DNA of 64,000 bases from contig DAICYC010000001.1 in the NCBI GenBank assembly GCA_027311865.1, forward strand, positions 33,880 through 97,879. The letters run 5' to 3'. Below the pieces are notes generated by a model. That model saw nothing but the letters and a program-made list of their open reading frames with translations. It was not told the origin of the DNA and did not search any database. The position numbers were made by a program, and so were the translations under genes. How positions within the stretch are numbered: the first letter of the stretch is position 1; every line of letters begins with the position of its first letter. This document shows positions 33,002 to 38,223 of this stretch, piece by piece. This stretch comes from Candidatus Saccharimonadota bacterium (lineage in GTDB: Bacteria > Patescibacteriota > Saccharimonadia > Saccharimonadales > Saccharimonadaceae).

Positions 33002-33826
33002 ATGAACACGAAATTATTAACCTTGCTCAAACTATCACTATCGATCACTGCCGCAACAATATTGCTGGCCCAGTTTGTAGCGGCAACACCGATTGTCTCC
33101 CAGAGCTATGCCACGGAAACAAAGTTACCGGTCGGCTCAATTGCCAGCCTAAAGGACGATGCTAGCAGCACCATAATCGCGGCTTCAATTCAATCAACCG
33201 AAACCATCATAGGAGTTGTAATTGATGCCGGGAGCGCCTATCTATCGCTGACACGTGGCCCAGATAGCGAGGCCCAAGTCGCCACCAATGGTATCGTCCA
33301 GGTTTTAGTATCAGACATTAACGGCGATATTAGCCGCGGTGACCACATTACCGCCTCACCAATCAAAGGTATCGGCATGAAAGCTACTGACAATATTCGT
33401 GTCGTTGGCATTGCCCAAGCCGGCCTCGACAACAACACCGGTAAAGTGGAAAAATACACTGACGCCGATGGCGCCGAAAAAGAAACCCTAATCGGTCACA
33501 TCCCCGTATTGGTCAACGTATCATACTTCTTCAAGCAACCTGAACGAACTATCGTACCTTCGGCACTACAGAATATCGCCAACGCGCTAGCTGGACGTCG
33601 AGTTGAGCCCCTGCCAATAATAATCGCGATGGCTATCTTTATTATCATGTTGATTGTAGTGGCCAGTATCGCCTACTCGATGATTAAAAGCAGTATCATT
33701 TCGGTCGGCCGTAATCCGCTGTCTCAATCAGCCATCTATCGAGGTTTGATTCAGATGTCAGCCTTGGTCATCAGTATTCTAGGTGTTGGCCTGGTGGTTA
33801 TCTACTTAATCCTAACGAGGCTTTAA
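33002..33826 (+). CDS. Secreted domain fused to a C-terminal two-helix hairpin that resembles an ATP synthase c subunit (no carboxylate)
   Basis: Signal peptide, about 190 aa of soluble domain, then ...IAYSMIKSSIISVGRNPLSQSAIYRGLIQMSALVISILGVGLVVIYLIL. Lies directly upstream of the b-delta-alpha-gamma-beta genes. Confidence 0.55.
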   Translation: MNTKLLTLLKLSLSITAATILLAQFVAATPIVSQSYATETKLPVGSIASLKDDASSTIIAASIQSTETIIGVVIDAGSAYLSLTRGPDSEAQVATNGIVQVLVSDINGDISRGDHITASPIKGIGMKATDNIRVVGIAQAGLDNNTGKVEKYTDADGAEKETLIGHIPVLVNVSYFFKQPERTIVPSALQNIANALAGRRVEPLPIIIAMAIFIIMLIVVASIAYSMIKSSIISVGRNPLSQSAIYRGLIQMSALVISILGVGLVVIYLILTRL

Positions 33827-33828
33827 TC

Positions 33829-34458
33829 ATGGAAACCTTTATGATTATCTTTTTGTTAATTAACGCCTTAATCGCCGGCGTGGCGGCCACGATTGCGCTC
33901 CAACACTCAGCAGCGCACCGACACGAAAAAAAGCAACGCACACAACAGTCCGTACCAATGCCGCGCATGCCAGCCGAAACCAGGGCTCACCTACTACTTC
34001 AGGCTGAAGAGAAATTTGAAGATCAAATTGAAGACTCCACTGCTCAACTTCAAAAAGACATCAACGACACTATCGACCGACTGGACAGTCGCGTCTCGAA
34101 GCTCGGTGACGAAATTATCGAAGCCGAGATGAAACGCTACCGCGAGAGCCTGGAGACCATCAAACTTCAAACCGAGAAGATGTTAATTGAAGCTCAGTCG
34201 GCCGTCTCAACCCACCAAGCCCAACTCGACGAACAATTTGCCAAGGCTCAGCAAGAAATGGTTGATAAACTGCGAGCTGACATCGAGTCCGAGAAAGAAC
34301 GCACCATGGCTGATATCGACACCAAGATGAATGATGCCGTTATCTCATTCCTGCTTGAAACGATGCAGCATAATGTTGATCTCGGTGCTCAAACTGACTA
34401 CATTCTATCTGTCTTGGAGGCCAATAAGGCAGATATTATCGGCGAGGTCAAAAAATGA
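33829..34458 (+). CDS. ATP synthase b-subunit-like protein (one TM plus a long coiled coil)
   Basis: Architecture and position upstream of the delta-like gene. Overlaps the next gene by 4 nt. Confidence 0.5.
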   Translation: METFMIIFLLINALIAGVAATIALQHSAAHRHEKKQRTQQSVPMPRMPAETRAHLLLQAEEKFEDQIEDSTAQLQKDINDTIDRLDSRVSKLGDEIIEAEMKRYRESLETIKLQTEKMLIEAQSAVSTHQAQLDEQFAKAQQEMVDKLRADIESEKERTMADIDTKMNDAVISFLLETMQHNVDLGAQTDYILSVLEANKADIIGEVKK

Positions 34459-34946
34459 GCCTAGTTATTCCGCCGACCATAATTTCACCCCAGGATTTGC
34501 TTTCAGTCATCGAGGAGTTGAAAAATTATTCAAGATATTCAGTTCACGAAGCCATTAAACAACGCGTAACTGTCCGTAAAAGTCGACCAGCTAACAACGT
34601 CGAACTATCAGATGAAGCGCGCGATTTGTTGCGTCAAGCCTCAGACGGAAAAACAATATCTCGTCGAGCTGTCGACAACCTGATTCGTGAACTTGATGCT
34701 GTTATCAAGAACTCGCAAACGGTCACTTTTACCCTCGCTGCGCCAGCTACGACTGATGTCAAGCGAAAGTTAGCCGACTGGTGCCGACATAATATTGGAC
34801 CATCAACGCTGATCGCCTTTAAATTCAACTCCACCTTGCTCGGGGGTTTTGTAGTTCGTTATGGCAGCCATGTTCATGATTGGTCGTTCCGACGCCAAAT
34901 CTTAAACCGATCGAATGACTTTATGGAGACTCTACGTCGTGTTTGA
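34455..34946 (+). CDS. atpH: ATP synthase delta (OSCP)-like subunit
   Basis: C-terminal pattern FKFNSTLLGGFVVRYGSHVHDWSFRRQI matches the OSCP consensus (D-x-x-L-I-G-G-x-x-V-x-x-G-x-x-x-x-D-x-S). Confidence 0.6.
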   Translation: MSLVIPPTIISPQDLLSVIEELKNYSRYSVHEAIKQRVTVRKSRPANNVELSDEARDLLRQASDGKTISRRAVDNLIRELDAVIKNSQTVTFTLAAPATTDVKRKLADWCRHNIGPSTLIAFKFNSTLLGGFVVRYGSHVHDWSFRRQILNRSNDFMETLRRV

Positions 34947-36417: not shown

Positions 36418-37277
36418 GACGAGCCAGTTTAATTGAAAAAGAGGGACTTCAGATCGGTACCATTGAAGGATTAACTGGTGTTTTCGAAAGCATTGCTAGT
36501 ACTCAAGTTGCGAAAGTTAAGCACAAAGTCGAGCTGTCGAAGGACTTTTTCGACTTGCTCTGGGCTCGCTATAGCGCTATTAGAATCGACCCCAACAGTC
36601 GCATCACCAATCGACATGCCGCCGAAGGCAACGGACGAACCGTCTTTGTTGTCATTTCGGCCGAATCAGGGTTGAATGGCGATATCGATCAACGCTTAAT
36701 TGAGACAATGCTCCGCGACTATGACGTCGACACGACTGACATTATTGTTCTCGGTACACACGGTGCGACACAGCTAATGCAACGGGGCGTTAAATTCAGT
36801 CGCTACTTCCAAGTGCCCGAATCAGATGAATATATTGACGTCGGCCCAGTTGTCGATGCTATCATGCCCTACTCCTCGATTATTGTTTATTATCAGGAAT
36901 ATGTGTCGCTGGGGGTTCAGGAGATTAAAACCATCAATTTGATTACCTCCCTCAAAGATATGAGCGAGAACGCCGATGACGAAAATGCCATCACTCCTGC
37001 CGAAACAATTTTCGAACCGACTCTCGATGAAATCGCTGTCGGCATGGAAGCAACCATGGTCACCTTGGCTTTGAATCAAACTATCCTCGAGTCGAGCCTG
37101 GCTCAAGCTGCTAGTCGATTCAACGCCATGGCTTCTGCCAAAAAACGAGCCGGTGAAATGTTGGGCGAATTCAAACTCGAATATCACCGAGCAAAACGTT
37201 CTGAAAGTGATCGCCGACTACGCGAAGTCATGATTAGTCTCAAAAAGAAACGCCGTTTAGCAGGAGGTCGACGATAA
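36414..37277 (+). CDS. atpG: F1 ATPase gamma-subunit homologue
   Basis: N- and C-terminal helices match the gamma pattern ([14 protein letters not shown]...; [25 protein letters not shown]). Coupled to alpha and beta by 4-nt and 1-nt overlaps. Confidence 0.7.
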
Positions 37278-38185
37278 TGCCAACTCCAGATATTCTCGAA
37301 CAATCAATCGGGACAATAACTTCATTACGCGGCTTGATGGTAGAGATTGAACTATCCGGTGAGCTGCCTGACGTTAAAGAACTATTGTCCATTGACGACC
37401 TTGAGGATGTATTTCTAGAGGTTAATTATTTCCGTGACGGTAAAGCTATTTGTATCAATCTGAACAACAATACCGCGCTGGCTTGCGGTCAAAAAGTTAA
37501 GCGCACCCATACTAAAGTCACTGTGCCGGTCGGTCCAAAAACCATGGGTCGTGTCTTTAACGCGCTCGGCGAGCCACTCGATGAGGGCGAACCAATAAAT
37601 GAAATGCGCAAATCAATTGTTGAACCCTCTGGCATCAAAAACTATCGCAGTAGCGACAAGATGGAAATGCTCGAAACCGGCCTGAAAGTTATCGACTTTT
37701 TAACGCCTTTCGTTAAAGGCCGGAAAATTGGAATTGTTGGTGGTGCTGGTGTCGGCAAGACAGTCCTAACTATGGAAATGATCCATAACATCACTCAAGG
37801 CAAAAATTCGTCCCTGTCGGTTTATTGTGGAGTTGGTGAACGTATCCGTGAAGGTAACGAGCTCTATCAGACCCTCAAAGAGACTGACGTGCTTAAAAAC
37901 ACTGTCATGTACTTTGGTCAGATGGACTCGACTCCAGCAATTCGCTCCATGGTAGCTCCAGCTGCCGCCACGGCAGCCGAGTACTTCCGTGACGAAGAAG
38001 GCCGGGACATCCTGTTCTTCGTTGACAACATCTATCGCCATATTCAGGCCCTAACCGAGCTATCGACCAACCTCGGACTGACACCATCCGAAGGTGGTTA
38101 CTCGCCACTCGTGTACTCCGAGCTACGTCGACTCCAAATTGGCATTCGATGGGCGCATCGGTACTCTTTCCATAAAACTCCCTAG
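37277..38185 (+). CDS. atpD: F1 ATPase beta-subunit homologue, C-terminally truncated (about 302 of an expected ~470 aa); possible pseudogene
   Basis: [11 protein letters not shown]-loop, [11 protein letters not shown] and [11 protein letters not shown] are conserved. Similarity ends after ...[14 protein letters not shown] and the frame stops 15 codons later. A convergent gene begins 38 nt downstream. Confidence 0.8.
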
Positions 38186-38223
38186 ACTTTTTACTCGTTA
38201 TTAACAGTTTAGCATAAGTAAAA

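Follow-up and report, generated by a model that had tools for sequence, protein, structure and literature searches.

The F1-like ATPases known from mycoplasmas, Type 2 (G1, for gliding) as well as Type 3 (F1-like X0, MIB-MIP), drive surface machinery (PMC12994834; Beven 2012). In bacteria of the CPR (Candidate Phyla Radiation), one closed WWE3 genome is reported to have its F1 genes next to membrane proteins that are not homologous to subunits a, b and c, of which the "putative c" resembles a transmembrane (TM) protein family in the ATPase operons of OP11 (Microgenomatia) and WWE3 (Kantor et al. 2013, PMC3812714). Among the Saccharibacteria, the atpI-B-E-F-H-A-G-D operon of Southlakia epibionticum is canonical and not essential (PMC10633639), and rhodopsin-bearing members are reported with complete clusters including c subunits. 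Our searches of the literature on F1-like ATPases in Patescibacteria or Saccharibacteria and on c-rings in CPR bacteria found no paper describing the operon type considered here. We analyzed a 64,000-nt stretch of a Candidatus Saccharimonadota genome (contig DAICYC010000001.1, positions 33,880 to 97,879; hereafter the window), which contains an F1-like ATPase gene cluster with a single 274-amino-acid (aa) membrane protein, termed unk, in the place of subunits a and c.

The explanation towards which we lean, if only slightly, has two parts: the cluster in the window is a truncated remnant, and the lineage from which it comes possesses a non-canonical F-type ATPase that does without a and c. The features that bear on this explanation are as follows.

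32952-32980 (+), promoter-like site TTCAGA-17-TATACT with an extended -10 TG, about 20 nt 5' of the first gene, from a consensus scan only
33002-33826 (+), 274-aa membrane protein unk, in the slot expected for atpB and atpE
33829-34458 (+), b-like peripheral-stalk candidate, 209 aa, with one N-terminal TM helix and a long coiled coil
34455-34946 (+), delta/OSCP homologue, 163 aa (PF00213)
34915-36417 (+), alpha, 500 aa, intact (PF00006 and PF00306); relatives align from the GTG at 34939
36414-37277 (+), gamma, 287 aa, intact (PF00231)
37277-38185 (+), truncated beta, 302 aa; authentic residues 1-288 up to nt 38137, then 16 unrelated codons
38138-38223 (no strand), putative rearrangement junction where the beta remnant meets the PAP2 3' end, placed by synteny and by the junction shared with a second assembly
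38224-38793 (-), convergent PAP2 gene (PF01569, 6.5e-25)
62918-63865 (-), carbamate kinase (TIGR00746, 381.5 bits; cut-off 358)

A sequence-only reading had given the cluster order as membrane protein, b-like, delta-like, alpha, gamma and beta, and the open reading frames (ORFs) together with the Pfam and NCBIfam matches agree with it. The six plus-strand ORFs are packed tightly at 33002-38185, with overlaps of 1-32 nt or a gap of 2 nt, a spacing compatible with translational coupling. Alpha matches PF00006 at 1.7e-66 as well as PF00306, and scores 402 bits against TIGR00962, under the cut-off of 484. It is 83-86% identical to the proteins of its closest relatives, from loci L002 and L003, and an exact-protein look-up of the window sequence gave no record. 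Gamma matches PF00231 at 7.6e-28 and is 80% identical to its L002 counterpart. The catalytic signatures that the sequence-only reading had seen are present, the P-loops of alpha (GDSKSGKST) and beta (GGAGVGKT) among them.

The b- and delta-like proteins had been described as highly divergent. The 163-aa protein passes the PF00213 cut-off weakly (26.2 bits against 22.3), and the profile of its family matches the C-terminal two-thirds of solved delta/OSCP chains at E = 3e-5 to 2e-4, with the N-terminal ~30 residues of the 163-aa protein unmatched. On these profile comparisons it is a genuine OSCP/delta homologue. The 209-aa protein gives weak NCBIfam subunit-B matches only (E 0.009-0.04), and its family profile retrieves mainly apolipoprotein-type coiled coils, the best solved subunit b standing at E = 0.07. 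It is a candidate subunit b by its architecture only. Epsilon and the beta C-terminus have no tblastn match anywhere in the 64-kb window, so that epsilon is indeed missing, as had been claimed. Subunits a and c were not found among the six-frame ORFs of the window with a c-subunit hidden Markov model (HMM) and a phmmer query with E. coli a, both crude probes, and no cluster product matches PF00119 or PF00137 in Pfam. The slot of atpB and atpE is thus held by a single 274-aa protein, as originally proposed. Another ORF, at window 39-863, is equal to unk in length but unrelated to it.

To place the cluster among its relatives, one genome per GTDB species was scanned using an alignment of closer unk homologues. 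The 274-aa family is encoded in at least 224 GTDB species genomes, all Saccharibacteria. Every sufficiently long locus (~80/80 Saccharimonadales species loci) has the gene order unk-b-delta-alpha-gamma-beta-epsilon, and the b-like gene keeps its position between unk and delta in all loci. The same operon recurs in three of five distant relatives (L085, L087 and L088), in which unk and the protein of the window share just 33-36% identity. Two other remote family members with a GRNP/GRQP loop, L083 447-1274 and L089 527-1372, do not stand beside ATPase genes; the former is followed by a 2858-aa protein and the latter by a DUF4082 protein. The apparent "split alpha" of L079 is explained by a 100-N scaffold gap. 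In L002, with a beta 82% identical to that of the window, the genes encode a 281-aa unknown protein, proteins of 210 aa and 163 aa (OSCP), alpha, gamma, a 466-aa beta and an 87-aa epsilon. No a or c gene was detected within 10 kb of any operon in a crude screen of 82 loci (c-subunit HMM and phmmer with E. coli a).

Identity across species is 62-88% for alpha, gamma and beta, 50-70% for unk, and 27-53% for b and delta. The high identity of the F1 subunits between species indicates that the enzyme is under purifying selection where it is intact, and the relatives keep the catalytic P-loop, GER..E and Walker B motifs. Their full-length beta scores 447.7-458.5 bits against TIGR01039 (atpD; cut-off 462.85), and their alpha 395-404 bits against TIGR00962 (cut-off 484.45). 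Since these scores lie under the atpA and atpD cut-offs, and are lower still against the N-ATPase and mycoplasma F1-like models, the proteins represent a divergent F1 lineage of their own. Gene content across the relatives suggests that the absence of a and c from the operon is a conserved state rather than decay. Of the two readings offered beforehand, that of a decaying operon is therefore retained for the truncated beta and missing epsilon, which appear private to this genome and lie at a breakpoint, and not for the lack of a and c, which is conserved in ~80/80 loci. The other, a remodeled F1-like motor, is favored for the lineage by the conserved a/c-less operon, although the copy in the window is broken.

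The window beta covers positions 1-148 of 213 in PF00006 and positions 2-285 of 462 in TIGR01039. By tblastn, its homology ends at nt 38137, corresponding to residue 288 of the 466-aa L002 beta, and a stop follows after 16 unrelated codons, so that 178 C-terminal residues are lacking: the rest of the nucleotide-binding domain and the entire C-terminal domain. Beta homologues in other species have 444-512 aa, the closest all belonging to Candidatus Saccharibacteria/Saccharimonadales. A full-length beta and an epsilon of 87-94 aa (PF02823, at 5e-12) are present in all 60-odd relatives with a contig reaching that far. The beta gene thus ends early against the convergent PAP2 gene, as had been noticed, with 38 nt from its stop to the PAP2 3' end. 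The sequence-only reading had also allowed that relatives might show a full-length operon, with a sequencing error in this genome. The relatives do have intact beta and epsilon, still without a and c, and a frameshift or sequencing error concealing the rest of beta is rejected, as there are just 38 nt between the two stops.

A near-identical assembly, L001 (GenBank NCEK01000013.1, Ca. Saccharibacteria bacterium 32-50-13; 99.9-100% identical to the window where aligned), has the identical beta/PAP2 junction, with the sequence common to both from 38145 into PAP2 and at least 10 kb downstream of the junction identical. Right upstream of the junction, 120 bp of authentic beta codons (window 38025-38144) are absent from L001 at 3914/3915, which suggests ongoing erosion, a second deletion segregating in the population, or a difficult local assembly. 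The "missing alpha" of L001 is a run of N, a scaffold gap. The upstream synteny (AspRS, CBS/CorB-like, DsbA-like and a conserved non-coding element) is common to 12-17 other species, and PAP2, PBP1A, DHODH and VKOR never occur downstream of the operon in the relatives' loci. As synteny is retained upstream and lost downstream, and homology ends inside beta, the locus was evidently cut inside beta by a deletion or rearrangement. From this comparison, the loss of the beta C-terminus and epsilon appears private to this genome and L001. A search for a relocated fragment with a relative's beta C-terminus gave only contig-end fragments of other organisms, a weak negative. The MFS gene between DsbA and the operon in L002 (3897-5579, minus strand) and ~15 other loci is absent at that spot in the window, which has an unrelated-looking MFS gene 6 kb upstream (25382-26605, minus strand). 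With the upstream MFS missing and a breakpoint downstream, the locus looks remodeled on both sides.

Rotary catalysis by F1 needs both the adenine-binding part of beta and its C-terminal domain, which pushes gamma. A beta without the last 178 residues would, on this established structure-function relationship, be incompatible with rotary catalysis. The cluster in the window is very probably a recently truncated, most likely non-functional, decaying remnant. Two observations speak against advanced decay: the other five genes are free of frameshifts and stops, and the window proteins are just 2-3 identity points farther from those of 68-78 other species than the L002 and L003 proteins are, a difference too small to call relaxed selection. 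Hence the truncation would be recent, or the decay slow or incomplete. Since carbamate kinase is present, as had been noted beforehand and as its TIGR00746 score supports, the organism presumably lives on substrate-level ATP.

The protein unk had been listed as unknown, and it has no Pfam or NCBIfam family above threshold; PHROGs and profile scans gave sub-threshold phage capsid or scaffold matches only, and a HMMER profile of the family had no match to any PDB sequence even at E = 10. It is not featureless, however. The predicted layout comprises a signal peptide (~1-29), a beta-rich ectodomain (~33-176), an amphipathic helix (187-196) and a C-terminal hairpin (203-234 and 240-273). The end of the signal peptide is Ala-rich, with an apparent A-x-A-like site (read by eye) directly before a conserved ISQxY. 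The family is large: it has more than 2000 close homologues, and its representative clusters number 4384 at E <= 1e-3, of which 505 remain at E <= 1e-30, nearly all of 255-300 aa. An AF2 model (pLDDT 78) has a beta-rich domain at 33-176 and two long helices. The Foldseek matches of the ectodomain are phage decoration or cement proteins (best E = 2e-5), among them those of Borrelia phage BB1, HFTV1 and Pam3, the phi29 gp8.5 base and lambda gpD; the modeled ectodomain is thus predicted to be folded like phage capsid decoration proteins. Outside the ectodomain, only R237 and P239 are invariant among ~100 sequences 29-55% identical, with G236, N238 and L240 conserved at 93% or more (N238 at 99%).

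This conserved loop lies within a hairpin that resembles subunit c. The signal peptide implies an N-out/C-out topology, and positive residues flank the loop. The number of residues after the loop Pro is 35 in unk and 34 in Bacillus PS3 c, and an alignment of eight c subunits likewise has only the loop R and P invariant. Aligned with c by hhalign, the hairpin has its RNP placed on RQP across its whole length (P = 0.002, probability 13-15%). This score was reached by 0/300 shuffle controls when full columns were shuffled and by 2/250 when shuffling was kept within segments, preserving the TM-loop-TM pattern (shuffle P ~0.01). A model of the hairpin only (pLDDT 86) gave c subunits as ~40 of the top 50 PDB matches in Foldseek, with TM scores of 0.5-0.7, at most 30% identity and non-significant E-values of 1.7-8. 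The position equivalent to the ion-binding carboxylate (Pro+18) is L, V, I or A, and no acidic residue is conserved in the membrane. The statistical support for a relationship to c is only suggestive. In sequence and model the hairpin looks c-like, and homology to c is plausible; by its residues, it is certainly not a proton-binding c.

Compared to the canonical F1Fo operon (atpIBEFHAGDC), the lineage operon has the same order b-delta-alpha-gamma-beta-epsilon, with alpha, beta, gamma, delta and epsilon recognizable as homologues. In contrast, it is without a (PF00119) and c (PF00137), for which it has one 270-290-aa ectodomain protein with a carboxylate-less hairpin, and its alpha and beta fall under the NCBIfam equivalog cut-offs; the window alone has in addition a truncated beta and no epsilon.

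The F1-like X0 ATPases of mycoplasmas, named beforehand as a precedent, are apt in architecture. The Type 2 and Type 3 enzymes have an F1-like head on a non-F0 membrane sector, a genetic link to surface machinery and no recognizable proton-path subunits, and one of their proteins combines a signal peptide, an ectodomain and two C-terminal TM helices, as unk does (PMC12994834). However, their clusters of seven genes include a 12-TM and a small cytoplasmic protein and no b or delta, whereas the window cluster has b-like and delta genes and no polytopic protein. Their membrane proteins share no similarity with unk detectable by NCBIfam, and they belong to Mollicutes rather than to a CPR lineage. 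Against the mycoplasma models (MSC_0619/0618 and MMOB1660/1670), scores over cut-offs are 258-264/520, 392/570, 303-315/600 and 333-346/850, all below the atpA/atpD scores. On gene content and these cut-offs we reject membership of the Type 2/3 families.

The N-ATPases (Dibrova 2010) are likewise a divergent F-type operon forming a distinct lineage, but they have a, c, AtpR and AtpQ in the order beta-epsilon-I-R-a-c-b-alpha-gamma. The alt_F1F0 (N-ATPase) models gave scores of 350-352 against a cut-off of 750 and of 412-424 against 752; with the gene order and content, this led us to reject N-ATPase membership as well. The WWE3/OP11 case was described in a one-paragraph remark that assumes a, b and c; it involves three membrane genes rather than the two found here, and its "putative c" can be compared with unk by description only.

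The genes that surround the operon in relatives may connect it to a surface structure. After epsilon, 56-60 of the fetched loci have a conserved 345-aa gene in convergent orientation and then secreted ~370-aa paralogues in an array. In L002 this block (11669-21401) consists of a 345-aa membrane-anchored protein, secreted paralogues of ~320-385 aa, one with a PKD/Ig match, and then a giant protein of more than 1000 aa. In the window, tblastn matched neither the 345-aa gene nor three array members (p265, p385 and p380) nor the L002 MFS gene. For Ca. Mycosynbacter amalyticus the Pam pili have been solved; the pam operon, with its secreted Ig-like pilins and chaperones, is consistently accompanied in Saccharimonadia and Microgenomatia by genes for ATP synthase, a CorB-like CBS protein and an MFS transporter, and no dedicated trans-envelope assembly machine was found for these pili (Troman et al. 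2026, bioRxiv 10.64898/2026.03.03.709456). The relatives analyzed here show a similar arrangement, CBS-DsbA-MFS-ATPase operon-345-aa gene-array of ~370-aa secreted paralogues, whereas the window is without an MFS gene at that position and without the pilin-like array. By gene sizes and position, the block after epsilon is probably the Pam pilus operon with a "tail-fibre-like" protein. The preprint takes the ATP synthase as ordinary energy metabolism and leaves the missing a/c and unk undescribed.

In the M. amalyticus proteome, ATP synthase beta (QHN42726) ranks 13th and alpha (QHN42722) 19th by abundance (bioRxiv 10.64898/2026.03.03.709456 supplement). The two are 4 IDs apart and lie ~545 IDs from the pam genes (QHN43268-74), though the text puts ATP synthase beside pam. 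The numbering may hint at two ATPase loci and proves nothing.

The following course of events and mechanism would account for these observations. A breakpoint at codon 288 of beta, in the seven-gene operon unk-b-delta-alpha-gamma-beta-epsilon, would have taken the C-terminal 178 residues of beta together with epsilon, and the same event would also have taken what stands after the operon in relatives, namely the 345-aa gene with the ~370-aa secreted paralogue array, probably the Pam pilus operon. The intact machine would have an ordinary F1 head and rotor (alpha3beta3 and gamma, with a short epsilon), delta and the b-like protein as its peripheral stalk, and a membrane sector of unk in place of a and c. 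The hairpins of unk would form a c-ring-like oligomer, with the invariant cytoplasmic GRNP loops docking gamma and epsilon as the RQP/RNP loop of c does. As there is neither a conserved membrane carboxylate nor an a gene in the operon, we propose ATP hydrolysis without ion translocation. Torque or conformational change would be passed to a surface ring of phage-decoration-like ectodomains, possibly serving the neighboring filament genes. We infer both the docking of the GRNP loop and the link to the Pam pilus.

For the lineage as a whole, the reading with the best support, on which we are nonetheless evenly balanced, is that the operon encodes a non-canonical F-type ATPase with a membrane sector of unk and the b-like anchor and no ion path. 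Several points count against it. The genome may encode canonical a and c in another place, or have a second operon that is complete, the screen having covered 10 kb on either side, and canonical operons do exist in some Saccharibacteria (Southlakia and the rhodopsin-bearing lineages). The retained b/delta stator makes most sense with a membrane stator partner such as a. Two unk family members (L083 and L089) are away from ATPase genes. Helix 1 of the hairpin is rich in I, L, V and F and is without the GxGxGxG packing motif of c-rings. The similarity of hairpin and c is itself weak, with Pfam and HMMER negative, an hhalign probability of 13-15% and Foldseek E-values above 1. A bolder version, which we regard as doubtful, extends the proposal to an ion-blind rotary motor of Saccharimonadia and probably Microgenomatia, in which F1 held by b and delta spins a carboxylate-less ring of c-derived hairpins that have gained a phage-decoration-like ectodomain and the force is used outside, for example to assemble, anchor, extrude or turn Pam pili. 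Under this version, one functional module would have been lost from the window when the 3' end of beta went together with epsilon and the pilus block.

The main rival, which we consider unlikely, is a conventional H+ or Na+ F1Fo enzyme with a and c encoded elsewhere, the 274-aa protein being an accessory, an assembly factor or an unrelated co-transcribed membrane protein; nothing but the loss of the beta end and epsilon would then be out of the ordinary here. In its favor, the operon has F1, delta and the b-like protein, with strong conservation, and split atp operons are known. Metabolic surveys rate the F-type ATPases of Saccharimonadia as "complete or nearly complete", and canonical a and c do occur in some Saccharibacteria. 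Yet no a or c gene was found within the 10 kb screened in more than 80 species, and in known split operons b goes with a and c, whereas this one has b and delta together with F1. The protein unk sits in the c position and is coupled to b, and the loop of its c-like hairpin has an invariant R-N-P; the canonical operon of Southlakia, by comparison, lists no extra membrane gene of the unk kind. The closed WWE3 genome is reported with non-homologous membrane subunits only (PMC3812714), and for soil Saccharibacteria other surveys describe the F-type ATPase as present "to varied completeness". A related possibility is that the operon may be a specialized paralogue coexisting with a canonical one, which would fit both the mycoplasma precedent and the ID numbering of M. 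amalyticus.

It seems improbable that the 274-aa protein, as a surface or cell-wall component, has no more than a promoter in common with the ATPase genes and no physical part in the complex, its hairpin being a generic membrane anchor. No sequence family ties unk to ATPases, the L083 and L089 members stand beside giant surface proteins away from ATPase genes, and short helical hairpins give non-significant Foldseek E-values in any case. However, unk adjoins b in ~80/80 near and 3/5 distant relatives, and the strongest conservation in the whole protein is in the cytoplasmic GRNPL loop, not in the ectodomain, which is unexpected for a passive anchor and expected for contact with a conserved cytoplasmic partner. 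Finally, an assembly artefact (a chimeric join or collapsed region hiding a full operon in the real genome) is very improbable: although the window and L001 differ by 120 bp exactly at the junction, L001 has a scaffold gap in alpha and both assemblies may come from the same reads, the two records share the junction and all that follows it for at least 10 kb, no GC or skew anomaly appears in the window, which extends for 33 kb on the upstream side of the cluster (38 kb on that of the junction) and for 26 kb on the downstream side, and the MFS gene is missing upstream as well, so that the locus is remodeled on both sides.

Several other features were observed in the window. Between the DsbA-like gene and the operon lies a ~265-nt non-coding element (32620-32890, probably minus strand), whose DNA is 69-97% identical in at least 17 other Saccharimonadales species and more conserved than the flanking genes. 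It has stops in all six frames, a promoter-like site at 32885-32857 (-) and, at its minus-strand end, a perfectly conserved bidirectional terminator hairpin, AAAACACCCCGGTGCCTTGGGGTGTTTT. RNAalifold gave -57.7 kcal/mol for the minus strand with 6 compensatory pairs, and a search of Rfam returned no family at gathering score or E <= 1. The element is a candidate new structured small RNA. Three tRNA genes with the anticodon CAT lie within 10 kb (13629-13705, 20907-20984 and 23643-23718, plus strand), presumably one initiator tRNA, one elongator Met tRNA and one lysidine-modified Ile tRNA. An S-adenosylmethionine (S-box) riboswitch at 58396-58496 (-), scoring 63 bits, overlaps the GTG that was mechanically called as the start of S-adenosylmethionine synthetase (ORF 57365-58444), and because of this overlap the real metK start is probably further downstream.

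Under the explanation towards which we lean, a truncated remnant in the window and an a/c-less F-type ATPase in the lineage, the locus appears to vary a known theme, the F1-like ATPase joined to a membrane partner other than F0, and to be widespread in the CPR and barely noticed in the literature. The window locus should be annotated as a pseudogenized operon, not as ATP synthase capacity. Metabolic reconstructions routinely credit Saccharibacteria and other CPR bacteria with an "F-type ATP synthase", from which proton-motive force, host proton scavenging and aerobic respiration are inferred; if the operon truly has no a and no proton-binding c, those inferences fail for hundreds of species. 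Experimental access is at hand, as M. amalyticus is cultured with abundant alpha and beta, Saccharibacteria genetics exists and the Pam pilus is solved. An ion-blind motor, if true, would mean that a mechanical ATPase of the "F1-like X0" kind arose a second time, independently and outside mycoplasmas, and could show how a c-ring is repurposed, and CPR bacteria without respiration may retain ATP synthase as a mechanical ATPase for the cell surface.

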